Below, piece after piece: positions 1,506-21,113 of a stretch of DNA of 32,000 nucleotides. Each line of letters opens with the position of its first letter. The first letter of the stretch is position 1. The DNA is taken from positions 1-32,000 of the forward strand of contig JACPWU010000035.1 in NCBI GenBank assembly GCA_016196885.1, given 5' to 3'. The stretch comes from Chlamydiota bacterium. Lineage in GTDB: Bacteria; Auribacterota; JACPWU01. The notes below the pieces were generated by a model. It was not told the origin of the DNA. It did no database searches and saw only the letters and a program-made list of their open reading frames with translations. A program made the position numbers and the translations under genes.

Positions 1506-2339
1506 ATGAAGAAGCTTTTCCTTTCGTCACTTCTCATCTTCTCCCTCTCCTCTTCTAGTGCCCAAACACCCCCTGTTTCCACCGACGCTCAGCAACAAGA
1601 GATTCTCAAGTATTATCAAGGAATGTATCAGCTTAAAACCGATTACCGTGCTGAAGGAAAAATTGCGAGAATTCAAGACCGCTTAAACAAGGCCTATGGC
1701 ATGAACATCCGCGTGATCCCGGGCCAAACGGGCCGAGCAGCCATGTCTTTTGGAAGAGGCATCATTGTGCTGGACCTTTCCATTTCGGGAAGCTATGACG
1801 AGGAAACCATCGCGGGCCTCTTAAGCCACGAATGGGCGCATGAATACCTCGGCCATCTCTACAATTTTCAATACGGCTACCTCCAAGGCCAGACCAATCC
1901 TTACACACAATTAGAAACCATGCGAAAGATGGAACTGGAAGCCGACTGCGTGGGAATGAAACATTTGGGCCAGGCAGGCTACTCCCCGGCAGGCTTTATT
2001 CAATTGATCATTGAAAAAGGAGATGTGGAGGCCTTTAAACATCCAAACCTAAGAATGTATTTTCCACCCGAGATGCGGCTCCAGGCCATTTTAGAATGTT
2101 CCCTCACCCTAGATCGGAAATCCCAACACCTGATTCAAGCATATTTAGGACTCCCTCTAGCGAAAACGGAACAAAAAGAAATATCGACCTTGCAGACTCC
2201 CTGCATACACCAAAAACCCTGCGAACACATCGTCCCCTGCATCCACCTGTGTCAAGACCCCAAAACCAGCAAAACCATCCCTTGCCATCTCTACGATACA
2301 GAGCATCCGTACGACACAGAGCACGAGCATGATGAATAG
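1506..2339 (+). CDS. Exported M48-like zinc metallopeptidase with Cys/His-rich C-terminal tail
   Basis: Signal peptide MKKLFLSSLLIFSLSSSSAQ. HEWAH (HExxH) is followed about 30 aa later by MELEADCVG, which resembles the E-x-x-AD third-ligand region of BepA/HtpX-type M48 peptidases. Tail is PCIHQKPCEHIVPCIHLCQDPKTSKTIPCHLYDTEHPYDTEHEHDE. Confidence 0.7.
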   Translation: MKKLFLSSLLIFSLSSSSAQTPPVSTDAQQQEILKYYQGMYQLKTDYRAEGKIARIQDRLNKAYGMNIRVIPGQTGRAAMSFGRGIIVLDLSISGSYDEETIAGLLSHEWAHEYLGHLYNFQYGYLQGQTNPYTQLETMRKMELEADCVGMKHLGQAGYSPAGFIQLIIEKGDVEAFKHPNLRMYFPPEMRLQAILECSLTLDRKSQHLIQAYLGLPLAKTEQKEISTLQTPCIHQKPCEHIVPCIHLCQDPKTSKTIPCHLYDTEHPYDTEHEHDE

Positions 2340-2340
2340 G

Positions 2341-2423
2341 AAAAATAGTTTTTAGTTCTTAGTTTTGAGTTTTGAGTTTTGAGTTTTGAGTTTTTAGAAC
2401 TTATAACTTAAAACTATTTTTAG
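2341..2423. terminator. Long imperfect hairpin between convergent genes; loop is (GTTTTGA)x4
   Basis: AAAAATAGTTTTTAGTTCTTAGTT (2341-2364) pairs imperfectly with AGAACTTATAACTTAAAACTATTTTT (2395-2420). Tandem heptamer at 2362-2396. Lies between the stops of 1506..2339 (+) and 2420..3667 (-). A/T runs on both sides are compatible with a bidirectional terminator. Confidence 0.45.
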
Positions 2424-3667
2424 TACCACCCATGATGATCTTCCTGCGTCCCGGGGGTGGGTAAGGATTCTACCCCGGGCCACTCGAGATTTTTGGGAAA
2501 TTGAACGGCCTTCGTCCCTCCCCCTAAGGCATCCGGCCTGCTAATTCTAAAGCTATTTTCAATTTGGAAAAGCAAGGTTTTCAGTTCATCCCATCTTTCA
2601 ATCGAGGCATATCTTAACGTCATCACCCCGGAAAAACTATTTCCCTGAGAGACCAGGGCCCCTCTTAAAATACCGTGCTTACGCCCAGTGGAAAGATGAT
2701 CGAATAAAACCTCTCGCTCGATCACCTTCCAACGCTGGCCCAAGCGGTCAATAAACTCGTCATATTCATGTTCAGATAAAATTTCGACATGGTTGACGGC
2801 CGCGGGATCTTGGTCAAAAAGTTTCAGAAATTCCTGCGGGGTGGGATTACCCGGAAGATAAATAAAAAAATTCACCAGAAAACTATTGAATTCGTCTTCC
2901 GAGGTCACCTCGATCGAGTAACGACTTTCCTTCACCCGCCAACCTTGAGGATATGAAACTTGAAAAACCTGCCCCTCGAATAAATGAAGGGAATCACTTT
3001 GAAAAGATTCGAAGCTGTCCCGAGAACTTTCCAAGGTCATTTCCAAAGACGGCCATTCATCCAAAGGCGCCCAAATCGCCTCGTAAAAACTGGAATACCC
3101 TCTTTGAACCGCACGCACCTTCCCTGTCACAGGAATTCCAAAAATGGAGCCGGACAACACGGCCTCTATCTCTTCAGGTCTTTCCTTCACCTCTTCCAAA
3201 GTCAAATTTGGAAATTGTTTTTTCAGAATTTCTTTTTGAATCTCAAATTGGGATTGAAGTAAATCACGCAACGTGCCAGAGGCCTTGCGAATGGGACAAA
3301 TCAAAACGCAGGCCGTGCGCATCGCCTCCCGATACACCCAAACGCGGCCCGGTTCAATGTCCAATTTCCAATTTTCGGGAACGCGAAGAGAAAATCCCAA
3401 ATAGGGCTGCCTAAAAATCCTCATGGGAAGGACGGAGGCCTTTAGAGGCATGGGTAGTGGAGGATGTTGAGGCAAAACCTCAGGCTGCGCAACCAGGACA
3501 GGCTTCGGGGATTCCTTCGCTTCATGACGTCGAGGCTCAAGAGAATGCTGAGGAGAAGAAAGGATCAAAATAACCATGCACAAAAAGAAAGACACCCCCA
3601 GCCCCGCTGCCATCCTTTGCCCTCTCGTCCAAGACCTCATTTGAGAAAAAGGAGATAAATGTCTCAT
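2420..3667 (-). CDS. N-terminally membrane-anchored protein, anchored-paralog family (paralog of 7804..9288); Pro-rich stalk plus two degenerate modules
   Basis: Start moved to ATG 3667 (M40 of the ORF-track protein). The longer form would overlap the well-supported divergent gene at 3738, and the paralog aligns from here (PFSQMRSWTRGQRMAAGLGVSFF vs FLSQVGAWSLRQKILVTVGFFTF). TM helix AAGLGVSFFLCMVILILSS. Blocks conserved with the paralog: YLGFSLRVPENW, FQVSYPQGW, IYLPGNPTPQEF, SFSGVMTLR, LGGGTK. Confidence 0.7.
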   Translation of the reverse strand: MRHLSPFSQMRSWTRGQRMAAGLGVSFFLCMVILILSSPQHSLEPRRHEAKESPKPVLVAQPEVLPQHPPLPMPLKASVLPMRIFRQPYLGFSLRVPENWKLDIEPGRVWVYREAMRTACVLICPIRKASGTLRDLLQSQFEIQKEILKKQFPNLTLEEVKERPEEIEAVLSGSIFGIPVTGKVRAVQRGYSSFYEAIWAPLDEWPSLEMTLESSRDSFESFQSDSLHLFEGQVFQVSYPQGWRVKESRYSIEVTSEDEFNSFLVNFFIYLPGNPTPQEFLKLFDQDPAAVNHVEILSEHEYDEFIDRLGQRWKVIEREVLFDHLSTGRKHGILRGALVSQGNSFSGVMTLRYASIERWDELKTLLFQIENSFRISRPDALGGGTKAVQFPKNLEWPGVESLPTPGTQEDHHGWY

Positions 3668-3671
3668 TTTT

Positions 3672-3700
3672 TTGCGAACCCTTGAAAAATGTTCTATAAT
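3672..3700 (+). promoter_or_regulatory. Sigma70-like promoter for the 3738 gene: TTGCGA-N17-TATAAT
   Basis: TTGCGA at 3672-3677, exactly 17 nt spacer, TATAAT at 3695-3700. About 30 nt of leader carries GGGAG (3726-3730) 7 nt before ATG 3738. Sits in the 70-nt divergent intergenic region. Confidence 0.5.
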
Positions 3701-3737
3701 GAATATATCACTTAAACCTAGAAAAGGGAGCCATCCG

Positions 3738-4856
3738 ATGAAAAAGTTTCCTCTCGTTTCTTTGACAATTTTGAACTTTTTCATCCTTCATGCGGCCTTT
3801 GCCCAATATCCAGGACCCTCGAATTTTAACGCCAGTCTTCCCTCGGGCCTCACTTATACCCATCCTCAAGGCATTTTCACCCTTCAATTTCCTCAAGGAT
3901 GGATTCAAACCAATACCACCGATTTAAGACAGGCGGCCTATTTTATTCTCATTCAAAATGGAACGGCTCTCGCAGAGGCGGCCATTTATGTAGAAACCCT
4001 CTCGCAAACGGTGACACCTCAAATGTACGCCATTGGAGTAGAAGAAAACACGCTGCGTCGCACACCGGGTTATCAAAAGGCCGCTGAAAATGTAGTGGCC
4101 ATCAACGGTCAAATGGCGGCCTATCGTGAATTTTCTTATTCAGCCAACCTTCAGGGGCAGACGAAAATGGTTTTGTCCGCACACTATTATTTTGTGGTGG
4201 GAAATTTGGCCTATCTGCTTCATTTCGCGACTTATCCAGAAATCGCTCCGCAAGTGAAAAATCAATTTCTTCAAATTGCGCAGAGTTTCAAAATCTCGGG
4301 TGGCTCAGCGATGAATACCCCCCTCTATCAACAAAACACCAGCATGAATCTTTATCCCAATACGACTGGGCCCGTCCAAAACAATGCCCCTGTCTATAAT
4401 CCTTATGCATCACAAACCAATCCGAACCCTTATGTCTCTGCGACCCCTATCAACTCAGGCAATCCTCAAGACGTGAACTCCCCAGAATTTATACAGCGAT
4501 GGATGCAAGAGCATCCCTATGAACCCCCTCCTGTGGATAACCGCATGACGCAGCAATTAGACGCCATGGCCAAACAATGGCAGGCCCAGCATCCGGCCCC
4601 GACCGTGCCAACTCAAAATGCCCTCAACACAAATCCTTACAATCCGCCCCTGCCACCGACCCAGCAAACGGGAAATGCGACGACTTTTACCATGAATCAA
4701 CAAACGCCTTTGTCCCAAACGCCCATGCCTCAGACTCAAAAGGAGGAGCCTCTTCCCGCGCCACAACCGCTCCCAGAGATCGCACCTGTAGCACAAACGG
4801 TCCACACGACTCCAGAGGCAACACCCACAGATTTAGAAGGAGAGAATCAGCAGTGA
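3738..4856 (+). CDS. Exported paralog P1: one Y-x-H-P-x-G-x-F...P-x-G-W module plus about 185-aa N/P/Q-rich tail
   Basis: Start moved to ATG 3738 (GGGAG SD; signal peptide MKKFPLVSLTILNFFILHAAFA). Module starts YTHPQGIFTLQFPQGWIQTNTT (nt 3855-). The body is clearly paralogous to P3 and P6: VEENTLRRTPGYQK vs AEQNSLRGLQNYQE vs VEENTLKSLPQYQK; HYYFVVGNLAYLLHF vs EFYFVFGNAAYTFHF. Tail nt 4299-4856 is low complexity. Confidence 0.8.
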   Translation: MKKFPLVSLTILNFFILHAAFAQYPGPSNFNASLPSGLTYTHPQGIFTLQFPQGWIQTNTTDLRQAAYFILIQNGTALAEAAIYVETLSQTVTPQMYAIGVEENTLRRTPGYQKAAENVVAINGQMAAYREFSYSANLQGQTKMVLSAHYYFVVGNLAYLLHFATYPEIAPQVKNQFLQIAQSFKISGGSAMNTPLYQQNTSMNLYPNTTGPVQNNAPVYNPYASQTNPNPYVSATPINSGNPQDVNSPEFIQRWMQEHPYEPPPVDNRMTQQLDAMAKQWQAQHPAPTVPTQNALNTNPYNPPLPPTQQTGNATTFTMNQQTPLSQTPMPQTQKEEPLPAPQPLPEIAPVAQTVHTTPEATPTDLEGENQQ

Positions 4857-4866
4857 AAAACAGTCC

Positions 4867-4953
4867 GCAGTCGCCCGATTTATCGGGCAGTCTATGCATT
4901 GTCCCATAAATAGGGCGACTACAAGGGATTTGCCCGATAAATCGGGCGACTAC
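4867..4953. repeat. REP triplet copy 3: GCAGTC-GCCCGATTTATCGGGC-AGTCTATGCATT-GTCCCATAAATAGGGC-GACTAC-AAGGGATTT-GCCCGATAAATCGGGC-GACTAC
   Basis: Same family as 354..398, with one extra B palindrome plus head. Lies between P1 and P2 inside a probable operon. The ORF-track start of the next gene (4894) falls inside it. Confidence 0.8.
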
Positions 4954-4989
4954 AAGTTATTGGTAAAGGACTCTACCTTGAAATCCAGC

Positions 4990-6414
4990 ATGCTCAAACT
5001 TTTCGGGGGGGCATTGCTGATCTTCCTCAGTCAGCCACCGATGCCCTTTGCCCAAAATCTTTTACCCACGCCCGGGTACGCCATCACCTATCAAGATCCT
5101 CAACAGAGATTCGTCATCAGCTTTCCTTCGGGATGGCAGCAAGCGAAACCGCCATCACCCGAGGCCCAAGCCTATTTTTCTTACACACAAAATGGCGCCG
5201 TCATCGCAGAGGCTATTGTTTATTCGTATCAACTCCCCCATCAAATGAATGTCTCTGATTTTCAGTCCGCGATCTTTCAAAAAACCATCCTTCCCCATAT
5301 CAACACCATGACACCTGACCCCGCCAGCAACAGCCTCAAAAATTTTGGCATGACGACAAGCCTTCTCTCTGAATATGATTACAATCCCAAAACTCCCATG
5401 AGAATGAGGCACTATTATTTTGTCCACGTCTACACCGCCACAGGGATTGTGATTCGCTTTGACACCTTCAAACAATATTGGCCGATGATGATCCCAAAAT
5501 TTGAAGAGGTCATGGCCACGTTTAAAATAGGAATTAGCAATATCACCCTGGAACAATTGGCCGAGCAAAATCTCGTGGCAGGAAGTGTGACCCCGCCCCT
5601 GCTTCAAAATCCGAAGGCCTACATGCCGGATTATCCTTGGGATGTTTCACCCCAGGCCACCCCCTATGACGAAGAGATGCTCATCAACATCCGTGTCCTC
5701 AAAAATTTGGTTCAAAACGATCCCACTTTAAAAAGCACCCTCCCCGAAATCGAAAAGCGCGAAAAAGAAGTCGAACAAAGAATTCAAAACAGCCTCGAGA
5801 AAAATAAAAGAAAGGAGCTTGAGGCACTCCATCAAAAACCAGGGGAGGGACCTCTCCCGAAAGACTCCGCCGTCTCCACCGTTTTGAATGTGAAGCCTCC
5901 CGCAAATTTAACAGGAGATATTTATGGCGAAATCCAAAAAGCCCCACCTCGTCCCACCCCCGAAGAAACCCAAATTGCTGTAGAAGCCGATCTCGTTCCT
6001 TGGCAAGATCCCTTGGAGCGCTTCTCCCTCATTTATCCGAAGGGATGGGCGAAAACCCAAAAAGGGGCGTGGTATCTTTCTTTTGATGGACCCGAAGGCA
6101 ATCAGATTTTGGTCTTGTCCTTCATGGACCCTTCTTTCTCTGCAGAATATTTAAAGCAATTGCTCAAAAATCAGCCTCCCCTTGCACAAAAGGAAGTCAC
6201 ACTCAAAAATGCCGAGAAAGCCCAAATGCTCACGTTTCAAACCCGGAATGAAGAGTCACCTGACGCCGAAGAAATGATCGTGACCTCCATTTCACCCGAA
6301 AAATCAAATTTACTCTTTTTAATTCGCTTTTCAAAAGAACGCTACGAAGGCAACAGGGGTATGGTAAAAAAAATCATTGAGGTATTGATTGCGGGAATTG
6401 AACTGAAAGGATAA
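4990..6414 (+). CDS. Exported paralog P2: two modules separated by a charged K/E-rich linker
   Basis: Start moved to ATG 4990. The residues before it translate the REP element, and a signal peptide MLKLFGGALLIFLSQPPMPFAQ follows it. Module 1 is YQDPQQRFVISFPSGWQQAKPP (nt 5089-). Module 2 is WQDPLERFSLIYPKGWAKTQKG. Linker is EKREKEVEQRIQNSLEKNKRKELEALHQ. Confidence 0.8.
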   Translation: MLKLFGGALLIFLSQPPMPFAQNLLPTPGYAITYQDPQQRFVISFPSGWQQAKPPSPEAQAYFSYTQNGAVIAEAIVYSYQLPHQMNVSDFQSAIFQKTILPHINTMTPDPASNSLKNFGMTTSLLSEYDYNPKTPMRMRHYYFVHVYTATGIVIRFDTFKQYWPMMIPKFEEVMATFKIGISNITLEQLAEQNLVAGSVTPPLLQNPKAYMPDYPWDVSPQATPYDEEMLINIRVLKNLVQNDPTLKSTLPEIEKREKEVEQRIQNSLEKNKRKELEALHQKPGEGPLPKDSAVSTVLNVKPPANLTGDIYGEIQKAPPRPTPEETQIAVEADLVPWQDPLERFSLIYPKGWAKTQKGAWYLSFDGPEGNQILVLSFMDPSFSAEYLKQLLKNQPPLAQKEVTLKNAEKAQMLTFQTRNEESPDAEEMIVTSISPEKSNLLFLIRFSKERYEGNRGMVKKIIEVLIAGIELKG

Positions 6415-6418
6415 AAAC

Positions 6419-7510
6419 ATGAAAAAAATACTGTTTTCTCTTCTCTGCATTTTGGGTATCACCCCTTTTATTTTTGCTCAACCCTCTCCAGGACTTTCTT
6501 ATCGGCATCCGGACGGAAGTTTTCAAATTCAGTTTTCCGCCGGCTGGGTTCAAACGCAAACGACGAGCCCCGTCCAATCAGCCTATTTCGTTTTTTACCA
6601 AGGGAACATGCCTGCGGGAGAAATGATCGTTTTCATTGAACCCCTGATGCAGCCTGTGACCGCTCAAGCATATGCCTGGAACGCTGAACAAAACTCGCTG
6701 AGGGGCCTTCAGAATTATCAAGAGGCCTCTGAAATGCCCATCTCCATCGCGGGTCAAGGCGCGATCGTTCGCCAATTCAGCTACACGCAAAATCTGAAAG
6801 AAATGACCCAAATGATCGCAGCGGAAGAATTTTATTTTGTTTTTGGGAATGCGGCCTACACCTTTCATTTTGGAACCCATGCCCACCTCTATCCGCAAGT
6901 GAAACCTCAATTTGACGAAATTATTCGGACCCTTCAGCTTTTCGCAACAGGACCTCTCCCTCCCACAACGGCCGCAGCCACAACTCCAACATTAACCCCT
7001 CATCTTCAAAGTTTGAGCGAGAACCCTTCCCCAACGCCCCCTCTCCAAACTCAAACACCGGACAACACCTGGGTTCCTTCTCCTCAAGTGCTTCCCACCC
7101 CAGAAAAAATATTCGGTCTCAAACCCTATCAGGACCCCAAAGGAAAATTTTCCATGCAAGTCCCTGACCGCTGGCTCACCACGGAAAGCGCAAGCGGACT
7201 CATGAGTGTCTCAGGAAAAGGGCATGTCATCTCTGTGGAAATTTTTCCGGGGCCTGAAACGGTAGATGTCATGCAATCCATTAAAACCCGGGGCAAAACC
7301 ATTGTGTCCCAAGGGACTCGGGTGATTCAAGGAATGAATGGAACGGAAATCATTTTCAAAGACAAGGACCCTCAAGGATGGGATGTGATTGAAACATTGA
7401 TAATCCTAAAGGAAAAGAACGCCCTGGTCAGTTTCATCGCCCCTGAAGCCGAATATGAAAGCATCAAGTCCAGCCGCGATGAGATTTTGAAAAGCTTGAG
7501 GTTTGCATAA
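6419..7510 (+). CDS. Exported paralog P3: two modules separated by a P/T-rich linker
   Basis: ATG lies 4 nt after the P2 stop; AAAGGA SD. Signal peptide MKKILFSLLCILGITPFIFAQ. Module 1 is YRHPDGSFQIQFSAGWVQTQTT. Module 2 is YQDPKGKFSMQVPDRWLTTES. Confidence 0.85.
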   Translation: MKKILFSLLCILGITPFIFAQPSPGLSYRHPDGSFQIQFSAGWVQTQTTSPVQSAYFVFYQGNMPAGEMIVFIEPLMQPVTAQAYAWNAEQNSLRGLQNYQEASEMPISIAGQGAIVRQFSYTQNLKEMTQMIAAEEFYFVFGNAAYTFHFGTHAHLYPQVKPQFDEIIRTLQLFATGPLPPTTAAATTPTLTPHLQSLSENPSPTPPLQTQTPDNTWVPSPQVLPTPEKIFGLKPYQDPKGKFSMQVPDRWLTTESASGLMSVSGKGHVISVEIFPGPETVDVMQSIKTRGKTIVSQGTRVIQGMNGTEIIFKDKDPQGWDVIETLIILKEKNALVSFIAPEAEYESIKSSRDEILKSLRFA

Positions 7511-7733: not shown

Positions 7734-7786
7734 GTAGTCGCCCCATTTATGGGGCCGTCCATTTGCCCGATGAATCGGGCGACTAC
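7734..7786. repeat. REP doublet copy 4: GTAGTC-GCCCCATTTATGGGGC-CGTCCATTT-GCCCGATGAATCGGGC-GACTAC
   Basis: Same orientation as copy 1. Lies 18 nt downstream of the stop of the minus-strand gene 7804..9288. Confidence 0.85.
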
Positions 7787-7803: not shown

Positions 7804-9288
7804 CTACTCCAAAATAATATCTGTCGGATCCTGTGGATTCACATAGCCTCCTCGCGTGGGATCATAATCTTGAGGCGTTACCCACACCGCTTGTCCCGTC
7901 TTCTCGGAATCCCGATAGCCCCCGCCCTGCATGTATTCTCCCCATTTTTCACCCACCAGATCATTGGACTGGGTTTTTGCCTCCCAGCTTTCCATCACGC
8001 TGGAGGTGTCGGCGGGATGATTGGCCGGTAAAACCATGCCTTTCACCCCGCCCCCCAAAAGCTCTGGATGCAGGACCTGAAAACTTTTTTCAATCGCTTC
8101 TAGAAGGGATGAGACCGATTCCCATCGCTCGAGGGGGGCCTGTCGAATAGACATCACGCCTGAGAAGCTCACCATTTGCCTTAAAATTCCAGAGGTCATC
8201 GCCGCCCTCAATCGGCGGCCCTGCCAGTCATATTCCATGATGCGCCCGCCCATTCTCCAAGTTTGCCCGATGGCGTCTGTCATGTCCGCATAAGATTTTT
8301 GATCGAGAATGACGCTATTTTGAAGTTTGTCACCCAGATTGCGAAGGGCAAAATCCATGAATTGAAAGGGATCGGGATTGCCCGGCAAATAAATGGAAAG
8401 CCCTATCGAAACCGCTGTCTCATCTTGTGGGTCTTTCACATCAATACCATTTAAGGTCTCACTCACCTGCCAACCGTCTGGATAATAAACCTGAAAGGCA
8501 TTCCCCTGATAAAGCTTCAGAGGCTCGCCTTGAAAAGTTTCAAAACTCTCTGCAATCACTTGAAGCATTTCTTCCAAACCTTCCCATTCTTTTTGACGCG
8601 CCCAATAGGCTCGATAAAGACCGCGCCTCCCCTCCAAAGAAACTTTTGCCTTTCCTTGAATGGGAATCCCCGCTAAGACGCCCGAAAAATCAGCTGTCGC
8701 AAGCGTCTCTCTTTCATCCACCGCTCCCAGACTTAAACTGTTTCCACTTTTTTGATAAATGGCCTGATCTATTTGGAAGCAACTTCTCAAAAATTCTGTC
8801 AGGGTTAAACCCTTTTTTAAAAAAACGGGATAAACCACCACCCCCGTCAAGGCCTGAGGTTCCCGCTTCACCAAAATCTTTCCCTGCATGGCATGGAGAT
8901 GCCACATTTCCGGAATCCGAATCGAAAATCCCAGAAAGGCATCACGATAAACTGTCATGGGAAGCGACACACTTGGTTTCCTGACGGCCGTCAGTGGAAT
9001 GGGAGTCACTCCCGTCACTCCTGAACCTTTCCCGATGGGGATTTGAGAACCATCGGGGAGTTCAAGAAATTGAGCAGAACCCCAAGAGGGCTCTGTCACT
9101 TTTGTTGTCACAGAAGAAGGACGAGACACCCCAGGTGTTTCTTGATCTATTTTTTGCCTGGCCTCATTTCTCTTCCATGAAAAAATGAAAGCAAGGCTGA
9201 CAAAAGTAAAAAATCCCACCGTCACCAAAATTTTTTGGCGCAGGGACCAAGCACCCACCTGAGACAGGAATGAAAAGCACTTTTTCAC
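7804..9288 (-). CDS. N-terminally membrane-anchored protein, anchored-paralog family (paralog of 2420..3667); last gene of the kinase operon
   Basis: GTG start at 9288 overlaps the TGA stop of the upstream kinase gene (GTGA at 9288-9285). TM helix ILVTVGFFTFVSLAFIFS. Conserved blocks FLGFSIRIPEMW, FQVYYPDGW, IYLPGNPDPFQF, SFSGVMSIR, LGGGVK. Extra C-terminal G/D/P-rich tail. Confidence 0.8.
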   Translation of the reverse strand: MKKCFSFLSQVGAWSLRQKILVTVGFFTFVSLAFIFSWKRNEARQKIDQETPGVSRPSSVTTKVTEPSWGSAQFLELPDGSQIPIGKGSGVTGVTPIPLTAVRKPSVSLPMTVYRDAFLGFSIRIPEMWHLHAMQGKILVKREPQALTGVVVYPVFLKKGLTLTEFLRSCFQIDQAIYQKSGNSLSLGAVDERETLATADFSGVLAGIPIQGKAKVSLEGRRGLYRAYWARQKEWEGLEEMLQVIAESFETFQGEPLKLYQGNAFQVYYPDGWQVSETLNGIDVKDPQDETAVSIGLSIYLPGNPDPFQFMDFALRNLGDKLQNSVILDQKSYADMTDAIGQTWRMGGRIMEYDWQGRRLRAAMTSGILRQMVSFSGVMSIRQAPLERWESVSSLLEAIEKSFQVLHPELLGGGVKGMVLPANHPADTSSVMESWEAKTQSNDLVGEKWGEYMQGGGYRDSEKTGQAVWVTPQDYDPTRGGYVNPQDPTDIILE

Positions 9289-10424
9289 AACGCCCTCTCC
9301 TTTATCAACGGAATCCAGAAGTGAACTTGTGTACCCTCTCCTAGAGTGCTGTGAAGCTCAATCTCTCCACCATGCCGGGCAATCATGCCTTTGGCAAAGG
9401 GGAGTCCCAGGCCAGCAAGTTTCTCGTTATCCTTTTCCACATTGATGATCGGAAAGAATAAATCCCTTCGGACCTCTTCAGAAATCCCATGTCCTTCATC
9501 TTTAATCGTGAAGCTTATTGCGGGCATGTTATTTTTATCCATGGGTTTGGCCTGAACCTCTACTGTTCTCCCTTTGTCACTTGCCTCTATTGCATTCAGG
9601 ACCAGCCTTCGTAAGGTTTCCTGTAGGGCCGTAGGACTTGCCAGCACTTTCGTCTTTCCTCCCTCTATTTCCTTCTTGAGAATAATTCCTTTTTCATGAA
9701 CTGCCTTTTGAAGCTCTTCATCCTCAAAGTCCACCAATTCACTGAGTGCAATCTCTCTAAAGTCTTTGAGGCTATCCCAATAGATGGTCCTTAAGTTGTG
9801 GGTGATTTCTCGAATCCGTCTGACACATTGAAGAGCCGTATTGCCAAACTCGATCTCGGATTCGTCTTTATTAAAGCGCCGAGCTGCCAGTTGTACAAAT
9901 GTATATACACTCTGAATTGCATTGTTGATGTGGTGAGCAACCCAGGTGGTATAATTTTCCATGGCATGGGAAGTTTTTTCCTGAATCAACCGTGTGACTT
10001 CTTCCAATTGGGTGTTTTTTGCCTTTTCTTCAATATATTTTTGCAGGCTTGCTCCTAAGACTGCTTCTATTTCTTCTCTTTGATAGGGCTTATGAATGTA
10101 TTTGAAAATTTCTGCTTGATTAATGCTGGAGCCCAGGACTTCTATGTCTGAGTATCCAGTGAATAAGACTCGGATCACCTGAGGAAAAAACTGTTTGATT
10201 TGAGCGAGAAGTTCTATTCCCGTCATTGCGGACATGCGTTGGTCTGCGATAACAACTGCAATTTCGCTTCCCCGAGGGGTTCGTAAGATTTCCAGAGCTT
10301 CTTTGCCTGTCTGTGAAACCAGAATATTGAAGGAATCTCCAAACTGGAGTTTAAAAGTTTTTAGAACTTTTTGCTCATCATCAACAACAAGAATTGAATA
10401 ATTCTTCTGAGAAACTGCTGTCAT
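9285..10424 (-). CDS. Receiver-histidine kinase fusion (REC + HisKA-like + HATPase_c)
   Basis: REC motifs: ILVVDDE, VVIADQRMSAMTG (Asp61), LFTGYSD, HKP. H-box WVAHHINNAIQSV. ATP-lid motifs NAIEAS, DEGHGI, GLGLPF. AGAGGAG SD in the 23-nt gap after the upstream kinase gene. Confidence 0.9.
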   Translation of the reverse strand: MTAVSQKNYSILVVDDEQKVLKTFKLQFGDSFNILVSQTGKEALEILRTPRGSEIAVVIADQRMSAMTGIELLAQIKQFFPQVIRVLFTGYSDIEVLGSSINQAEIFKYIHKPYQREEIEAVLGASLQKYIEEKAKNTQLEEVTRLIQEKTSHAMENYTTWVAHHINNAIQSVYTFVQLAARRFNKDESEIEFGNTALQCVRRIREITHNLRTIYWDSLKDFREIALSELVDFEDEELQKAVHEKGIILKKEIEGGKTKVLASPTALQETLRRLVLNAIEASDKGRTVEVQAKPMDKNNMPAISFTIKDEGHGISEEVRRDLFFPIINVEKDNEKLAGLGLPFAKGMIARHGGEIELHSTLGEGTQVHFWIPLIKERAL

Positions 10425-10447
10425 ATCAACTCCTCTTGAAAATTCAT

Positions 10448-13405
10448 TTAAGAAGAGCGCTTACGATCCACAGGTAATTTTACAATAAACTCCGTTCCCT
10501 CACCCACCTTGCTTTTTACCTGAATTTCTCCGCCATGAGCTTGAATCGTGGCATGGCTTACACTTAAACCTAATCCCGTTCCCGATCCTACGGGTTTGGT
10601 CGTGAAAAAGAGATCGAAGATTTTATCCAAATCTTCCTTTGAGATACCGACTCCATCATCTCGAACCGAGGCAAAAATGAAGTTGCTTTCCTGCCAGGTT
10701 TTAATCCAGATATTTCCATTTCCTAAAATTGCATCTGATGCATTCTTGATGAGATTGATAAACACCTCTTCCAATCGAATAGAATCTCCTTGGATAGGAA
10801 TCACTGTACCATAAGTTTCGTGAAACTGTATTCGAGCCGCATTTCCAGCTTTTAAAATTCGAACACCCCTTTGCAAGATCTGATTTAAATCTACCGTCTC
10901 TATGTTCATCTGTGTAGCTCCATGATGGGAAGCCACCAGAAGATCCTGTACAATCACTCTCACTGCATCCAATTCTTCTTCCATGATTTCAAGAACCTCT
11001 TTGACGTCTGGCACGATCTCTTCAAAAGATGCATTTCCAGTTTTGACTCTTTCTATTCTATTTCTTAAGATGTCAACTCCTTGAATGGGCGAGTGGATTT
11101 TATTATTAAAGTGATGAGCAATACCTGCCACCATCACACCAATAGAAGCCAATTTCCCTGATTGAAAAAATTGTATCTCCAATTTCCTTCTTTCAATCAA
11201 CCCTTTTACTCGTGTCAAAATCTCTCGATTATTGAATGGCTTAGAGAGATACTCATCTGCCCCTTCTTCATAGCCTTTTATTTTGGATTCTATATCTGCT
11301 TTGGAGGTGAGCAGGATCACTGGGGTGAGTTTGAGTTCTTCGTCTGTTTTAATCGCATGCGCCAGTTCGTACCCATTCATTTTGGGCATCATGATGTCAG
11401 ATATGATAAGCGCCGGTCTTTGGGCTTTTACCTTTTGCAAGCCCTCTTCTCCATCCTTGGCAAAGTCAAGATTGTAGTAGTCTTTTAAGACGTAGCCCAA
11501 TATCTGGATGATTTGCGAATTGTCTTCGACAATGAGGATTTTGTCGCGGCCAAAGACTTCGCCTCGCAAGTGGCTGAGGTCCACTTCGTCAAAGTTTTTG
11601 AGGCCAAGATTTATTTTGATGTTTTCATCTTCGGTGAGATTCGTTGTGTCGAGTTTTGTTTTGTCTATGTGACGGTCTCCTAAGGGGAGTTCTACCGTGA
11701 AGATGCTCCCTTTGCCTACTTCGCTTTGGACACTCACTTTCCCAGAAAGTTTTTCCACAAATTCTTTTACGGTTGCAAGTCCAAGCCCTGTCCCTTGTAC
11801 TTCTCTTAAGGGGTTGTTGCTCGCTTGTGTGAAGGGGTCGAAGAGGGTGGCCAGATCCTCTTTGGGGATCCCTCGACCTGTGTCTCGTACTTGAATTTCG
11901 CACGTGCCTGCGTTTCCCCTCCCTTGATGGGAGGGGTTAGGGGAGGGTGACGCTCCCACCACAACCTCCACTTCACCATCTTTCGTAAATTTCAACGCAT
12001 TTCCAATGAGATTGTTTAACACTTTTTTCAATTTGGCTCGGTCGGTGTAAATATTTATTGGCTTTTCAAGCTTGTTCGTAAATTTAAGCCTGTTATGAGA
12101 AGATTTTGCAGCGCTTTCAAAGGCTTTGACTGTCCGATCCACAAAGCTCGCGATCTCAAGCTCGCTCCATGTGATTTCAAGAAGCCCCTTTTGAGACTTT
12201 GTGAGCATTAAAAGGTCATTCACATTCTCTAGCATGTCATCCAGAAAGGCACGGCTATCACCCAGAAGTTTTTCTTGCTGGACACTGTCTTTTAGGCCCC
12301 CTTCCATTATCATTTGAATGGTACTCGATAAGGCGACTAATGGGGTTCTAAATTCATGCGTGATGTTAGAGAAGAAGCGGGATTTGGCTTGGTCTAGATC
12401 TTTCAATTTCTCATTTGCCGTTTGAAGTTCTCGGGTTCTTTCTTGTACAAGTTCTTCCAAATGGTCTCGATGTTTCTGAAGTTCGGCATGCGTTTTTTCT
12501 AGTTCCTCATTGGCCGCTTGTAGTTCGTCGTATTTTTTGGTGATGGCTGTCACCGATTTTTCAAGGGCTTCGTTCTGCTCTTCTGTCATGAGCGTGTTTT
12601 CCTTGATGATTTTCCGATAGTCCAAAAGACGGCCCACCGTATAAGCCACAAGCATGAGGAGAAGTCCTGTTATCCCGTTAAGTGTGCTCTTGGGTAAGAT
12701 GATGAGACTAACCATGACAAGTGGAAGCGATATCGCCAGTCCCATCACCCCCAAGATTCTCCTCGGCCGATTGAGCCAGGTGTAGATATCCACGCAATAA
12801 GGGGCTCCCTGTGCTTGGCATTGTAGCTCCTGGACTTTCGCCATGGGCATGTCGAATAGGTTTGGGATGGAGGCCATTTGGCCGTGGCGATTTTCGCAAG
12901 CATATCGGTCGGTCTCGATTCCTTCTTTCCATGTTATTTTGATGACGGCTTCGTTTCTCTTTAATTCAAGAAGTTCCCACAAGGCCGCTTTGTTGAAGTT
13001 GGGGACCATTTCGACCACTTTCTTGATGGTAAATTTGACGGTGCCAAAGAACCGAAAGATGGTGTAGGTGCTTCCCCACGCTTCTTTCGTTGCGGCAATG
13101 GTCCCTGCTTCAAAGGGGGCTTTGGGGTCTTGGGTTGTGTCCGCGACGGCTTTGAGTAAGTGACGGTAATAGCTCCACGAGACCCAGTTGTTTTCATCTT
13201 GGAGATAATTGAGGTCCTGTCCTGTGTCTTGAATAAGTTGCGCTAACAACTTTTCCCCATATCTTTTTTTAACGTACAAAAGGGTGCTTTTTAAGACTTT
13301 GCAGTTGAGTTCTGCTCTTTCAAGTTTTTTTGTTTCTTTTCTGATTGTTTCCATTTTAGGGTCTTGTTTAGTTTTTCCGCTCCTTTTCAGCGATGATTTC
13401 TGCAC
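10448..13405 (-). CDS. Hybrid sensor kinase with two transmitter cores: N-terminal sensor, 2 TM, coiled coil, HisKA/HATPase_c, REC, second HisKA-like/HATPase_c
   Basis: First core: FFSNITHEFRTPL (His350), GNALKFT, DTGRGI, GTGLGL. REC: ILIVEDN, IISDIMMPKMNG (Asp670), LLTSK, LSKP. Second core: GIAHHFNNKI (His763/764), NLIKNASDA, DDGVGI, GTGLGLS. TM helices about aa 217-237 and 244-262. The start is uncertain: GTG 13405 overlaps the upstream gene by 38 nt, while ATG 13354 lies 13 nt after its stop. Confidence 0.9.
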   Translation of the reverse strand: MQKSSLKRSGKTKQDPKMETIRKETKKLERAELNCKVLKSTLLYVKKRYGEKLLAQLIQDTGQDLNYLQDENNWVSWSYYRHLLKAVADTTQDPKAPFEAGTIAATKEAWGSTYTIFRFFGTVKFTIKKVVEMVPNFNKAALWELLELKRNEAVIKITWKEGIETDRYACENRHGQMASIPNLFDMPMAKVQELQCQAQGAPYCVDIYTWLNRPRRILGVMGLAISLPLVMVSLIILPKSTLNGITGLLLMLVAYTVGRLLDYRKIIKENTLMTEEQNEALEKSVTAITKKYDELQAANEELEKTHAELQKHRDHLEELVQERTRELQTANEKLKDLDQAKSRFFSNITHEFRTPLVALSSTIQMIMEGGLKDSVQQEKLLGDSRAFLDDMLENVNDLLMLTKSQKGLLEITWSELEIASFVDRTVKAFESAAKSSHNRLKFTNKLEKPINIYTDRAKLKKVLNNLIGNALKFTKDGEVEVVVGASPSPNPSHQGRGNAGTCEIQVRDTGRGIPKEDLATLFDPFTQASNNPLREVQGTGLGLATVKEFVEKLSGKVSVQSEVGKGSIFTVELPLGDRHIDKTKLDTTNLTEDENIKINLGLKNFDEVDLSHLRGEVFGRDKILIVEDNSQIIQILGYVLKDYYNLDFAKDGEEGLQKVKAQRPALIISDIMMPKMNGYELAHAIKTDEELKLTPVILLTSKADIESKIKGYEEGADEYLSKPFNNREILTRVKGLIERRKLEIQFFQSGKLASIGVMVAGIAHHFNNKIHSPIQGVDILRNRIERVKTGNASFEEIVPDVKEVLEIMEEELDAVRVIVQDLLVASHHGATQMNIETVDLNQILQRGVRILKAGNAARIQFHETYGTVIPIQGDSIRLEEVFINLIKNASDAILGNGNIWIKTWQESNFIFASVRDDGVGISKEDLDKIFDLFFTTKPVGSGTGLGLSVSHATIQAHGGEIQVKSKVGEGTEFIVKLPVDRKRSS

Positions 13406-14783
13406 AATTTTTTAGAAGGCTCTCATCAATGTATCCGACTGAGTTTCTGAAATAGGCAAGTCTAAAGTCTAGACTTCTGGCCGCCTGATAGATTTCTTCT
13501 GCTTGATGCGCTTGAACCTTTCCGATGCTGCAGGTGTTGGACCGACCTATGGCGGTTAAGACCATGGTCTCAGCCAGGCACCCTAAAGCTTCGTTTCGAT
13601 TCAGATCAAAGTCAAAGTGACAGTCCACACCCGGCGTTTCTACAATCGCGGATTCGATCACAATGATATCGTTTCTTTTCTTTGGAACTTCGTCAGAGAC
13701 ATTCTTGGGCTGGGCACAGTCTATGACGATTGCCCCTGGCTTAAAATGTTCAGCGTGCACAATAGCCCCAGGAGCGTTGGTGACGACGATTACAATGTCT
13801 GAGCCCGCTATTCCAGAAAGGTTTCCTGAAGTTTCAATTTCGCAAGGAGCATCTTGGATAGAATCGATCAGCTCTTTCAATGCCTTTTGATTGATGTCTA
13901 TTAGTTTGAGTTTTTTGACTTTTCTCGCCAGGACTTGGACACAGCCTGTTCCTACTGAGCCCGCAGCCCCAATGACAGCAAGGGTCGAGTTTTCCAGTTT
14001 TAATCCAATCAAGGCAGCTGCCTTGACCACATTTTGTACGGCTACGGCGGCCGATAAGGGATTGCCCGTCGTTACCCCAATCTGAACTTTATCAACCACA
14101 TCTTTTCCATCATGGGTGACAATAGAGGTAAAGGCCCCCAGCCCTACAGTTCTGACCCCTATTCTTTGCGCAAGTTTTACCGTTTCTAAGACACGGTGAC
14201 TGGCCATTTTTCTGTCTTTGAGCATTTGAATCGTCCACAGAGGTGAGCCGATGAACCAGCCGTTTACGGCTTTTCCCGTTTTGTCTTTTAAGCCTGTGAT
14301 CTTCGACGCGATAAACGGTTTTTGATGATAAAACCATTTTTGTACCCATGTCTCTTTCATCCATTTGGCAAAGGGAAACATTCGATATACGTCCCGATGA
14401 TCTCTCGGATGCCCAATAAAAGCAAAGGCGCCTTTACCAACCAAAAACCGTCCGATTTTTTCTGGAAGAAGAGGGATGAGACTGTCGCGAAGTGCAGTTA
14501 GAATGCTTAGCATGCCTTGATGAAGTCTGGATCTTTCAGGTTGGAAAGAGGGGCCTCTTGATCTGCGCGCTTCACGACGACGATCCGCTTTTTTCCTTCT
14601 GTCATGTTGAGTAGATGAGCTCCATACACGGCGATTTTTTTCTCTTCGATCTTGTTTTGATGCTCTGCGATAGATCGGGAATTCGTCCGGTATAGTTACC
14701 GACTGGATTGGTGCTTGATCAAGAAGAGAGCAAGCGCTTGTTGATGTTTTAGGTAAGTTATTTATGACAAAAGAAAGTTCCAC
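13368..14783 (-). CDS. COG5322-type NAD(P)-dependent oxidoreductase resembling cyanobacterial acyl-ACP reductase (AAR), with possible Arg-rich N-terminal extension
   Basis: FAFIGHPRD, GLGAFTSIV, VTTGNPLSA, Rossmann motif LAVIGAAGSVGTGC, IVIDCAQPKN and GCLAETMVLT match, from memory, the AAR motifs LIGHLTS, LGGFTSI, TTGN, VVGATGDIGS, DGGYPKN and CFAEAML (catalytic Cys position conserved). The GTG start at 14783 is uncertain; ATG 14513 would remove the Arg-rich segment. Confidence 0.75.
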   Translation of the reverse strand: MELSFVINNLPKTSTSACSLLDQAPIQSVTIPDEFPIYRRASKQDRREKNRRVWSSSTQHDRRKKADRRREARRSRGPSFQPERSRLHQGMLSILTALRDSLIPLLPEKIGRFLVGKGAFAFIGHPRDHRDVYRMFPFAKWMKETWVQKWFYHQKPFIASKITGLKDKTGKAVNGWFIGSPLWTIQMLKDRKMASHRVLETVKLAQRIGVRTVGLGAFTSIVTHDGKDVVDKVQIGVTTGNPLSAAVAVQNVVKAAALIGLKLENSTLAVIGAAGSVGTGCVQVLARKVKKLKLIDINQKALKELIDSIQDAPCEIETSGNLSGIAGSDIVIVVTNAPGAIVHAEHFKPGAIVIDCAQPKNVSDEVPKKRNDIIVIESAIVETPGVDCHFDFDLNRNEALGCLAETMVLTAIGRSNTCSIGKVQAHQAEEIYQAARSLDFRLAYFRNSVGYIDESLLKNCAEIIAEKERKN

Positions 14784-14873
14784 GGCTGAAGCCCCCCCGG
14801 TGCCCCCTCAGTCCGTTTACGCCAAATATATCAACGCTCGTTTACCAGGACCATTATATGATAAAATAGGATT

Positions 14874-15080
14874 ATGAGAAACCTGAAAAAATTAAAGTCT
14901 GATACAATGGAAGACACGCTTGCCCTTTCTCCCCAAGAAAGGGTTCGGCTGGCAGAATCCCTTTATCAGGAAATAGTACACATTCAAAAGAAACGCTTTA
15001 AACCCTTCGTTAAATCCTTCTCGAGTTTTGAAGAATATGAAAAATGGAAGGCCCGACAAAAGGATCCTTGGCTATGGTGA
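14874..15080 (+). CDS. Small protein (68 aa) coupled to the downstream nucleotidyltransferase; putative antitoxin-like partner
   Basis: Its stop overlaps the downstream start in ATGGTGA (15074-15080). Helical, charged sequence. Weak resemblance to the small ORF of the second module (ERxRLxE; SF..EEY/DEF). No family recognised. Confidence 0.5.
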   Translation: MRNLKKLKSDTMEDTLALSPQERVRLAESLYQEIVHIQKKRFKPFVKSFSSFEEYEKWKARQKDPWLW

Positions 15081-15535
15081 AGTCTAGTTTGGCACGGGTA
15101 TGTGCCCTTTTAAATCGTTATCGAGTTCGATACTTGGTGATCGGAGCCCAGGCAGGGATTCTCTATGGCCTTGTGAGAAGCACGCATGATATTGATATTT
15201 TCCTTTTGAAGACAGCCGCCAATATTCAGAAAGCCCTCACAGCCCTTTCCTATTTGCCTCTGCAAATTGCAAAGGAATTAGACGCCGACGAAGTCTTAAA
15301 AAAACCGATTACCATTGTCGGAGACCAGCCTCGTGTGGACCTTTTAACCGCCCTCAGACAAGTTCAGTTTCACGATGCATGGAAGAAGAAAAAAGTGGTG
15401 AAGATTGACGGCATCCAAATCCCTCACTTGTCTTTAGAGGATCTCATCATTAGCAAAGACACAGACCGCCTTCAAGACCAGGCGGACTATGAAAAATTGA
15501 TACGACTTAGAGAATCCTTTAAAAATGTGATATAA
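15074..15535 (+). CDS. Minimal nucleotidyltransferase-fold protein (Pol-beta superfamily, mini AbiEii-like), module 1
   Basis: Start moved to ATG 15074 (7-nt overlap with the upstream stop). IGAQAGILYGLVRSTHDIDIF fits hG[GS]-x(9-13)-Dh[DE]h. C-terminal IPHLSLEDLIISKDTDRLQDQADYEKL resembles the E-D-L-I-x-x-K...R-x-K-D-x-x-D tail of AbiEii-type NTases. Paralog at 30579..31049. Confidence 0.7.
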   Translation: MVKSSLARVCALLNRYRVRYLVIGAQAGILYGLVRSTHDIDIFLLKTAANIQKALTALSYLPLQIAKELDADEVLKKPITIVGDQPRVDLLTALRQVQFHDAWKKKKVVKIDGIQIPHLSLEDLIISKDTDRLQDQADYEKLIRLRESFKNVI

Positions 15536-15566: not shown

Positions 15567-16943
15567 ATGAGAATGACAAAAATGATCGGCAGTTTCGTTT
15601 GTTTCACCTTTCTTCTATCCTCCTTGTCTCTTCTGGCAGAGTATGTTCCTGTAAATTCTTTCAATGATCCTCAAGGGCGCTTCAGCTTACAGTTGGGCCC
15701 CCATTGGCTGATGCTTCCCATGCAGGCCCAAGGCGAGCTTGGCCATTACGCCTATGCCCAAAATGGGATTGTGGCGGCAGAGCTCAGCATTGCCTCTGAG
15801 ACTTTGCCCATGATGCTCACGGCCGCTCAATACGCACAAGCAGTCGAAGAAAATACGCTGAAAAGTCTCCCTCAATATCAAAAAATTCAGGCCGGTCCTT
15901 TTAATTTGTCTGGGCTTGAGGGTTATTATTATCAATTCAGCATGCTGAAGGACACCCAGATGGGGTCCCAGCCCATGATCGCCGAACAATATTTTTGGAC
16001 GACAGGAACGACAGGATTCATGATTACATTCATGGTGCTCACCCCACAGGCCCATGCGCTTAAGCCCGCGCTCGATCAGGTGATTCAAAGCCTGCAATGG
16101 GGAGGCGCCACACAAATGCCCATGCAAAATCCTCAGAATCCTCAAACGATGGACCTGAATGCGCTCTATCAACAATACCAGCAGCAACAGCAGCAAATGA
16201 TGCAGCAATACATGCAGATGTATGCACAACAGAATCCAAACATGACAAACAATCCTTATGGGCAAAACACGATGCCGTCAGGAGACCTGAGCGCGCTTGT
16301 TCAACAACAAATGCAATTGGCCCAGTTGAAACCGCCCAGTGTGCCTATGAATCCTCAAAACCAAATGCTCATGAATCCGCAAAATATTCAGAGCTACCCT
16401 ACCGTCAATTCGGGCAATGTACAAGCTCCTGTGACGGCTAACAACCCTTTTCTTTCTCCCTCTCAAAACGCACCCTCGACCCCAAATGTCTATGCACCCC
16501 TTCAAACTCCGGCCCCTCCAAATCAGGGAAATGAGATTTCACTTCAAAGCTACGAGGACCCTCAAGGCCGATTCTCGATTTTGATTCCTCAAGGTTTTAC
16601 ACCCTTCCCCTCCCCCGCAGTCACATTTCAAGGACCCCAAGGGGAAGTGCTTAACATTGCAGAAGTTCCAGGCATGACGGATGAATTGATAAACACCGTG
16701 CTCGCAGGAAAGGAAATTCAAGCGAAGGAAGAAATTCAAGTCCGCTCAGGCACTCAAAATGTTGCCGCCACAAAAGTTCTTTTCATGGCAAAAAATCCTC
16801 AAACGGGACAATCCTTTGTCACCGCCGCTCTTTTCATTAAAGAGAAAAATATTTTCCTCAGCTTCACAGTTCCTCAAAATTTATCAGAGCAAGAAAGGAA
16901 TATGATGCAAAAGGTCCTAGCCAGTTTTGAAATGAAGGGGTAA
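15567..16943 (+). CDS. Exported paralog P6: two modules separated by an about 145-aa Q/N/M/P-rich (prion-like composition) linker
   Basis: Signal peptide MRMTKMIGSFVCFTFLLSSLSLLAE. Module 1 is FNDPQGRFSLQLGPHW (nt 15660-). Module 2 is YEDPQGRFSILIPQGF (nt 16551-). The linker (nt 16101-16532) includes YQQYQQQQQQMMQQYMQMYAQQNPNMTNNPYGQN. Confidence 0.85.
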   Translation: MRMTKMIGSFVCFTFLLSSLSLLAEYVPVNSFNDPQGRFSLQLGPHWLMLPMQAQGELGHYAYAQNGIVAAELSIASETLPMMLTAAQYAQAVEENTLKSLPQYQKIQAGPFNLSGLEGYYYQFSMLKDTQMGSQPMIAEQYFWTTGTTGFMITFMVLTPQAHALKPALDQVIQSLQWGGATQMPMQNPQNPQTMDLNALYQQYQQQQQQMMQQYMQMYAQQNPNMTNNPYGQNTMPSGDLSALVQQQMQLAQLKPPSVPMNPQNQMLMNPQNIQSYPTVNSGNVQAPVTANNPFLSPSQNAPSTPNVYAPLQTPAPPNQGNEISLQSYEDPQGRFSILIPQGFTPFPSPAVTFQGPQGEVLNIAEVPGMTDELINTVLAGKEIQAKEEIQVRSGTQNVAATKVLFMAKNPQTGQSFVTAALFIKEKNIFLSFTVPQNLSEQERNMMQKVLASFEMKG

Positions 16944-19740: not shown

Positions 19741-21096
19741 CTATTTCTCGCCCAATTCCTGCTCAATTGCACCCGCAATATCCTGGGCAAGCTTCTGAAT
19801 TTTATCAGCATCCTCCCCCTCCACCATTACGCGGGCAATGGGTTCGGTTCCAGAATAACGTACCACGGTTCTTCCGCCATCGCCCAAAACCTCGCGGGCT
19901 GAAAGAATGGCCTTTTGAACCGCCGGGATGTTCTCCAAATTTTTCTTGTCTCGCACGCGAATATTCACAAGCGCTTGAGGAAATCTCTCCAGAATTTTTT
20001 TCAAGGAAGACAATTTCTTTTTGGATTCCACCATGATTCTTAAAACCTGTAAAGCCGTGATGAGACCGTCCCCCGTCGTTGTAAAATCCCTAAAAATAAT
20101 ATGGCCTGATTGCTCCCCACCCAAAGAGGTATCTTGCTTTAACATCTCTTCAATGACATAGCGATCCCCCACTTGGGTACGGATCATCTCACCCCCCAAA
20201 GAGCGAATCAATTTATCCAAGCCGAAATTGCTCATCACGGTCGAAATGAGAAGTTTCTTACGATGGGAATCCTTAAAAAGATCCTCGGCGCAAATGGCCA
20301 TGAGGTCATCCCCATCCACTGCCTCTCCCTTGTCATCGGAGAAAATGACACGGTCGGCGTCCCCATCCAAGGCAATCCCGACATCCGCAGCCTGAAGAAT
20401 GACTCCATCTTGCATGTTCTTAGGATAAAGGGCCCCACAATTTTCGTTGATATTGGTCCCATTGGGCTGATTGCCATAGACGAACACCCGAGCCCCGAGT
20501 TCGCGAAACACCAGGGGGGCAGCCTTGTAGGCCGCGCCATGCGCACAGTCCAAAACAATTTTTAATCCATCCAGTGTCATCCCCTTCGGAAAAGAATTTT
20601 TCACAAACTCCACATAGCGGCCCAGGGCATCATCAATGCGAAACGCCTTTCCGACATCATGGGCCGTGGGGCGAATATGGGCAATGGTCCCTTCTCGAAC
20701 CAACTGCTCAATTTCTTTCTCCAATTGCTCCGGTAATTTTAAACCCTCCTTGGAAAAAAATTTAATTCCATTGTCTTCAAAGGGATTATGACTCGCAGAA
20801 ATCACAATCCCTGCATCGGCCCGAAGACTCCGCGTCATGAAGGCAACACCCGGAGTCGGAAGAGGACCCAAGAGTAATACATCTACCCCCATCGAACAAA
20901 TCCCAGCAGCCAGGGCGCTTTCAAACATGTATCCAGAAAGCCGCGTATCCTTCCCGATCACAATGCTGTGGCGGCGGTGGTTCCTCCTAAAAACATAAGC
21001 GGCCGCCCGACCCAGCTGTAATGCGACTTCTACGGTCATGGGCTCCGTATTGGCAACACCGCGAATGCCATCTGTGCCGAAAAGTTTTAGACTCAT
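19741..21096 (-). CDS. glmM: Phosphoglucosamine mutase
   Basis: 451 aa. FGTDGIRG, active-site [28 protein letters not shown]. Confidence 0.95.
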
Positions 21097-21113
21097 GATA
21101 AAACCCCCCGAAA

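Follow-up and report, generated by a model that had tools for sequence, protein, structure and literature searches.

PsbP docks on photosystem II, DcrB and LpqN cooperate with inner-membrane machinery for envelope biogenesis, and the Eag proteins, like Tsi3 and TplEi, bind protein partners; to our knowledge, all characterised members of the PsbP/Mog1 fold bind partners and none catalyse. Here, we describe six paralogous proteins (M1, P1, P2, P3, M2, and P6) with a total of 11 modules predicted to adopt this fold, encoded in a 32,000-nucleotide stretch from an uncultured Chlamydiota bacterium (positions 1 to 32,000 of contig JACPWU010000035.1, assembly GCA_016196885.1), hereafter called the window. 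A PsbP/MOG1 protein associated with a type VI secretion system (T6SS) has been proposed as a toxin adaptor, and PsbP/MOG1 domains occur in immunity-protein loci (PMC3482391). TplEi holds its toxin via grooves in two domains (PMC5611513), the DcrB family has been associated with membrane-anchored complexes (PMC7716261), DcrB and YciB act together in membrane homeostasis (PMC9487459), and LpqN interacts with MmpL3 and MmpL11 (PMC7458404). Bacterial PsbP-like proteins (DcrB, LpqN, Eag) are emerging as adaptors of envelope biogenesis and secretion, for which a cluster pairing anchored and soluble forms could serve as a comparative case.

Seven of the modules, each of about 150 aa, are found in P1, P2, P3, and P6, with low-complexity linkers between them. 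In P1 (3738-4856, plus strand), a signal peptide precedes a single PsbP-like module (3849-4307), and the remaining 182 aa form a tail enriched in P, Q, T, and N. P2 (4990-6414, plus strand) has a signal peptide, an N module (5083-5544), and a C module (5995-6411), joined by a 150-aa linker that is partly K/E-rich. The same layout is seen in P3 (6419-7510, plus strand; N module 6494-6946, C module 7121-7507), with a P/T-rich linker of 58 aa, and in P6 (15567-16943, plus strand; N module 15654-16112, C module 16545-16940), where the linker spans 144 aa and is rich in Q, N, P, and M. A preliminary description of the locus had reported P1, P2, and P3 as a tandem array of three co-directional exported paralogs and had counted seven modules once P6 was added. 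Indeed, the open reading frames (ORFs) lie at the claimed positions, P2 and P3 are separated by 4 nt (TAA, aaac, ATG), a palindrome resembling a repetitive extragenic palindromic (REP) element lies between P1 and P2, and all seven quoted module openings were found, one in P1 and two in each of the others. The four P paralogs are thus real, but the set was incomplete: there are six genes, the minus-strand M1 and M2 having been missed. M1 (2420-3667) has a transmembrane helix at about aa 16-42 followed by modules A (2999-3421) and B (2510-2998), while M2 (7804-9288) has its helix at aa 18-39 and modules A (8530-8955) and B (8053-8529), and ends in a conserved tail of about 80 aa (7804-8052).

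The relationship among these proteins is visible at several levels. The P paralogs match each other by BLASTP with E values of 1e-10 to 2e-37, and the N-module and C-module profiles align with 93% probability (E 3.4e-7, 124 columns). M1 and M2 are 38% identical (BLASTP E 1e-65), and the module openings of both M1 (FRQPYLGFSLRVPENW, FEGQVFQVSYPQGW) and M2 (YRDAFLGFSIRIPEMW, YQGNAFQVYYPDGW) carry the motif of the P modules. Compared directly, M and P modules gave a weak match. Against a PsbP-like profile of 169 domains gathered by the exhaustive search described below, the M modules matched over the whole domain, with a probability of 98.0% for A (E 3e-13) and 97.4% for B (E 1.5e-11), and hhalign placed all four module types in this 169-domain family at 97-99.9% probability. 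The ortholog of M2 also has a precomputed PF01789 match. Hidden Markov models of all four module types, run over all ORFs of the window, identified no seventh paralog and no further module.

The preliminary description had guessed, from the opening strand of the module, at a PsbP/DcrB/DUF1795 (Mog1-PsbP) fold. This fold was taken to be an alpha-beta-alpha sandwich with a central antiparallel sheet, comprising a beta-hairpin, strands, a helix, four strands, and a C-terminal helix. In an AlphaFold2 model of P3, built on a 6-sequence alignment, both modules (residues 26-172 and 234-363) have a predicted local distance difference test (pLDDT) score of about 90 and the linker is disordered. The best Foldseek match of this model in the PDB is the cyanobacterial PsbP (CyanoP) 2xb3, with an E value of 1.6e-8 and a target template modelling (TM) score of 0.80. 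Further matches include plant PsbP, MTC28, LpqN, Apa, EagT6, DcrB, Mog1, SciW, and Tsi3, all at a Foldseek probability of 1.00, together with BT_1490, PA94, and TplEi, and almost all of the 44 PDB matches at E <= 1e-3 belong to the Mog1/PsbP-like superfamily. Similarly, when 1.84 billion representatives were searched exhaustively with the profile, 372 proteins scored E <= 1e-3, of which 54 reached <= 1e-10 and 13 reached <= 1e-30, and Pfam analysis of 81 remote homologs from outside the clade gave 40 PsbP, 22 PsbP_2, 21 DcrB, and 2 LpqN matches. In many of the remote homologs the profile matched between two and eight stretches, and tandem modules thus occur outside this clade as well; those bearing an organism name come from Synergistota and Atribacterota metagenome-assembled genomes (MAGs), and nearly all are annotated as 'hypothetical protein'. 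Membership of the modules in the Mog1/PsbP-like fold superfamily is therefore confirmed by the predicted structure combined with a transitive sequence link, and the initial guess was a good one.

Direct membership in the Pfam families PsbP (PF01789) or DcrB (PF08786) fails. With the window proteins, searched whole and as single modules, PsbP scored 12-22.5 bits (gathering threshold 23.5) and DcrB 19-22.3 bits (gathering threshold 27.2), all below threshold, and some modules had no match at all. For example, residues 39-186 of P1 matched PsbP at E 0.026, and the best match of the N modules of P3 and P6 was DcrB at 21.5-22 bits, both sub-threshold; it was apt that the fold had originally been labelled as inference. 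The window proteins scored 10-21 bits with the NCBIfam PsbP/CyanoP equivalog NF040946, whose cut-off is 60 bits. In a sequence search of the PDB, the N-module profile recovered CyanoP at E 0.33 only and the M profile nothing. A gain of PsbP from plants or cyanobacteria, or a transfer in the other direction, was ruled out by the identity of 8-14%, the missed equivalog cut-off, and the affiliation of the named remote relatives with Synergistota and Atribacterota.

Like PsbP and CyanoP (PF01789; 2xb3, 2vu4, 1v2b), the cluster proteins combine an alpha-beta-alpha sandwich with the opening motif aromatic-x-D-x-x-G-F-S-h-x-h-P-x-G-W, and they are likewise non-enzymatic and, by prediction, exported out of the cytoplasm. 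Unlike them, they are only 8-14% identical to PsbP/CyanoP, fall below the Pfam and NCBIfam cut-offs, occur as six clustered paralogs with tandem modules, and belong to a non-photosynthetic member of the Chlamydiae with no photosystem genes nearby. DcrB (PF08786; 6e8a) shares the fold and is likewise attached to the inner membrane on the periplasmic side, but it is a lipoprotein with a lipobox cysteine, whereas the cluster proteins have no lipobox and M1 and M2 use a transmembrane helix. The DUF1795 Eag chaperones of T6SSs (EagT6 6xrf, SciW 6xrb) have the same fold but are cytoplasmic and encoded beside an effector with an N-terminal transmembrane domain; the cluster proteins have signal peptides or anchors and no effector neighbour. 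The mycobacterial proteins LpqN, MTC28, and Apa (PF10738; 6e5d, 4pws, 5zx9) resemble the cluster proteins in fold, export, and proline-rich low-complexity segments, and LpqN in particular is an accessory of envelope biogenesis (PMC7458404). These proteins are single-domain, however, and come from another phylum and envelope type, and PF10738 matches no protein of the window. Finally, the M2 model has its best structural match in TplEi/Tli4 (5h7z, 4r1d), a periplasmic protein of two domains, but the match is weak (TM 0.32, pLDDT 45) and TplEi/Tli4 is encoded beside its toxin Tle4, while there is no toxin here.

The cluster is a divergent subfamily of a well-known superfamily whose bacterial members, multi-module ones included, are already numerous. 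The new elements are modest, namely a divergent subfamily left unannotated by Pfam and its arrangement as a conserved cluster of six genes in a single rare lineage of chlamydiae. The present value of the finding lies in annotation: six 'hypothetical proteins' from this uncultured lineage, for which Pfam offers no annotation, now have a fold and a family. It also places a fold best known from photosystem II, at eleven copies, in one envelope cluster of a non-photosynthetic and probably host-associated bacterium.

Export was assessed by hydrophobicity and the -3/-1 rule. Sec-type signal peptides are predicted on P1, P2, P3, and P6, with putative cleavage sites AFA↓Q, PFA↓Q, IFA↓Q, and LLA↓E, respectively, in keeping with the cleavable-looking signal peptides noted earlier. 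M1 and M2 each have a single N-terminal hydrophobic helix without a cleavage motif. No lipobox (L-x-x-C) was found in the N-termini of P1, P2, P3, and P6, which rules out reading them as lipoproteins, and the mature P proteins contain no cysteine. None of the six proteins has an enzyme domain by Pfam and NCBIfam search.

P3 and M2 are identical to HYS08_02600 and HYS08_02605, deposited at NCBI from a 'Chlamydiae bacterium' MAG. In a sister Chlamydiae MAG (GCA_016196915.1, locus L001) all six genes are contiguous, in the order M1 (minus strand), P1, P2, P3 (plus), M2 (minus), and P6 (plus), preceded by GreA, an exported HExxH protein, and a MazE insertion. The cluster orthologs show 47, 60, 39, 48, 54, and 65/35% identity (47% for M1), and the neighbouring GreA 74%; this faster divergence (39-65% vs 74%) fits envelope proteins. 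The full P6 ortholog starts at position 12881 of L001, where M2 and P6 diverge over a 145-nt spacer that mirrors the 70-nt M1/P1 spacer of the window (3668-3737). The cluster is, then, made of two divergent 'anchored plus secreted' units, M1 facing P1-P2-P3 and M2 facing P6. Two short metagenome fragments from two further lineages (L006 and L007) keep the order P1-P2-(P3) and P2-P3. Every paralog has its own ortholog in lineages that are only 40-60% identical; the paralogs are therefore old, and a recent tandem amplification was ruled out. Contigs of GTDB genomes and of JGI metagenomes were each scanned twice, and no further relatives were recovered. A word-indexed homolog search returned nothing for the N-module alignment and, for single proteins, only the protein itself, the HYS07 ortholog, and one fragment. 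The cluster is specific to one lineage of uncultured Chlamydiae, and close relatives are very rare. The distant homologs P0008, P0154, and P0016 are single genes in unrelated contexts.

In the window, M2 and P6 are separated by a 6.2-kb block (9285-15535) whose genes were identified from Pfam and NCBIfam matches. An acyl-acyl carrier protein (ACP)-reductase-like gene, also resembling the PigE N-terminus and predicted to bind NAD(P), heads a kinase operon (13368-14783, minus strand) that continues with a hybrid histidine kinase of 985 aa (10448-13405, minus strand; HisKA-HATPase-REC plus a second C-terminal HATPase) and a receiver-HisKA-HATPase kinase of 379 aa (9285-10424, minus strand). A DUF6036 nucleotidyltransferase (15044-15535, plus strand) completes the block. 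Both kinases are unusual. The acyl-ACP-reductase-like protein is extended at its N-terminus by an Arg/Lys-rich stretch of about 110 aa, and the 3' end of its gene overlaps the kinase ORF by 38 nt. The GTG start of M2 overlaps the TGA stop of the receiver-kinase gene (GTGA), with a Shine-Dalgarno sequence (aaggagagg) just upstream; as read from these signals, M2 is translationally coupled to the kinase operon in this genome.

The array had been pictured at the outset as an expansion wrapped around a phosphorelay operon. As a conserved system this does not hold, since the sister MAG keeps the six genes with no kinases between M2 and P6; the whole block is absent at this position in that relative, the only one with context. 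The kinase block is not conserved with the cluster and the link is local only. Of the co-occurrence proposed for related genomes, one part stands, in that the paralogs stay clustered rather than scattered, while linkage to the kinases is lacking in that single relative; what is left of the association is the GTGA coupling of M2 in this genome. The cluster edges in relatives carry small genes of toxin-antitoxin type (5796-6074 and 15830-16383 of L001; 1995-2479 of L006), namely MazE, PemK, and two unannotated genes forming a pair (72 and 76 aa). The flanks of the cluster may thus be insertion hot spots, which fits the kinase block as a local insertion.

Because the fold serves in binding or as an adaptor in its characterised members, we propose, as the most likely reading and with about an even chance, that the six proteins constitute a non-enzymatic set of envelope adaptors or scaffolds. 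M1 and M2 would each insert into the inner membrane by a single N-terminal helix and expose two PsbP-like modules on its periplasmic side. P1, P2, P3, and P6 would be freed into the periplasm as soluble proteins through Sec and signal peptidase I, P2, P3, and P6 being bivalent and P1 having one module; long disordered spacers enriched in Pro/Thr, Gln/Asn, or Lys/Glu would carry the modules. By analogy with the fold, all six would most likely be adaptors that bind proteins or lipids and dock on complexes of the envelope. The kinase operon upstream of M2 would have been acquired locally, or lost in the relative, and would not be a core component. The fold and the predicted localisation are the strong parts of this proposal, the binding role being drawn by analogy. 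Several points weigh against it. The binding role is argued from distant relatives at 8-17% identity. Export is predicted from sequence only, and the M2 model (3-sequence alignment) is poor, with a pLDDT of 45; its Foldseek matches, TplEi/Tli4 first (E 1.6e-5, TM 0.32) and PsbP also, were counted as weak support only. The 'conserved cluster' comprises two genomes and two short fragments, with full context from one relative only. Finally, the GTGA coupling of M2 could be a functional tie that was lost in that relative.

In a rival reading, M2, and perhaps the whole set, would be an extracytoplasmic co-sensor of the hybrid histidine kinases, forming one signalling system with the phosphorelay. 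The coupled start of M2 and its Shine-Dalgarno sequence agree with this, as do the string of four co-directional minus-strand genes from 14783 to 7804 and the lack of a periplasmic domain in the kinases themselves, the two transmembrane helices of the 985-aa protein being joined by a loop of only 7 residues; this kinase also has an unannotated 215-aa N-terminal cytoplasmic domain. We nevertheless consider a co-sensor quite improbable, as the sister MAG has all six genes with M2 and P6 divergent over 145 nt and no kinases, five of the six cluster genes lie outside the kinase operon, and the distant homologs occur in unrelated contexts. Less improbable, though still unlikely, is that the P proteins are secreted or displayed on the surface, where they would bind host or amoebal molecules like the proline-rich antigens Apa and MTC28, the expansion being a host adaptation of an intracellular chlamydia. 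The Foldseek matches to MTC28, Apa, and LpqN, the Sec signals accompanied by Pro/Thr/Gln-rich low-complexity regions, the faster divergence than the adjoining housekeeping genes, and the very narrow clade are all consistent with such a role. It sits poorly with the predicted inner-membrane anchoring of M1 and M2, with the lack of any secretion-system gene nearby, and with the failure of PF10738 (LpqN) to match any window protein, and no observation supports passage through the outer membrane.

The proteins could also be a poly-immunity array, that is, periplasmic proteins of the Tsi3 or Tli4/TplEi type directed against envelope-acting toxins of competitors. The two-domain TplEi/Tli4 is the best match of the M2 model (E 1.6e-5), Tsi3 and TplEi are among the matches of the P3 model, and the immunity-protein loci mentioned above contain PsbP/MOG1 domains (PMC3482391). 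However, the TplEi match comes from a model with a pLDDT of 45 and a TM score of 0.32, and the one-to-one gene order is stable across lineages that are 40-60% identical, unlike variable immunity cassettes. Moreover, no toxin, Rhs, PAAR, T6SS, secretion-system, phage, or photosystem gene was found within the 32-kb window, the neighbours being all housekeeping genes, and no cognate toxin gene of the kind that lies beside Tsi3 and Tli4 was found in the window or in L001. An immunity array is very unlikely on these grounds. We would give just as small a chance to a more elaborate arrangement, a Chlamydiae-specific periplasmic complex in which M1 and M2 serve as platforms, the bivalent P proteins bridge toward the outer membrane, and, in this genome, the coupled M2 feeds envelope status to the sensor-less hybrid kinases. 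If such a complex exists, the PsbP fold would be serving as the extracytoplasmic input of a phosphorelay, a use not described before.

Two of the start codons deserve comment. The mechanical ORF of P2 begins at ATG 4894, inside the REP-like element, which yields a spurious N-terminal extension (MHCPINRATTRDLPDKSGDYK...). We take ATG 4990 (MLKLFGG...) as the true start because the orthologs begin at the equivalent position. For M1, the ORF extends to 3784, and ATG 3667 is the likely start because of the ortholog alignment, which begins at 3655, and a promoter-like site at 3672-3700. This site, a sigma-70-like match for P1 in the M1/P1 spacer (TTGCGA-17-TATAAT), is a consensus match only, the regional count of such matches not being above shuffled expectation. 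The maximal M1 ORF overlaps the start of P1 on the opposite strand (3738-3784), and both read MKKF....

The C-terminal tail of M2 (HPADTSSVMESWEAK...EYMQGGGYR.S.KTG..VWVTPQDYDP.RGGY.NP.DP) is almost invariant in the ortholog and absent from M1, and Pfam has no match for it. Within the low-complexity tail of P1, at about 4480-4640, a conserved island (PEFIQRWMQEHPYEPP...AKQWQAQHP) was also noted; it is common to the P1 ortholog on L007 and is not present in the shorter P1 ortholog of L001.

The rest of the window is housekeeping. Upstream of the cluster are GreA and the exported HExxH protein (1506-2339, plus strand, 277 aa), which has a signal peptide, a HEWAHE motif, a weak Peptidase_M48 match, and a Cys/His-rich C-terminal tail. 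It adjoins M1 in the sister MAG too, with 68% identity, and may belong to the same envelope neighbourhood as the cluster. Downstream are genes for an NAD(P)HX repair enzyme, AcpS, PdxJ, GlmM, CdaR, CdaA, FolP, FtsH, RecR, DnaX, and Dus, among which CdaA (the cyclic di-AMP cyclase), CdaR (YbbR), and GlmM form an operon at 19741-22943 on the minus strand. Finally, the REP-like sequence GCCCGATAAATCGGGC and its variants have 15 matches in the window, where 0.04 were expected, all of them intergenic. The palindromes (GCCCGATAAATCGGGC / GCCCCATAAATGGGGC) are often paired and lie at 360-392, 522-537, 4873-4947, 7740-7780, and 23065-23120; the third belongs to the element in the P1-P2 gap (4866-4955), and the fourth is the element lying where P3 and M2 converge.

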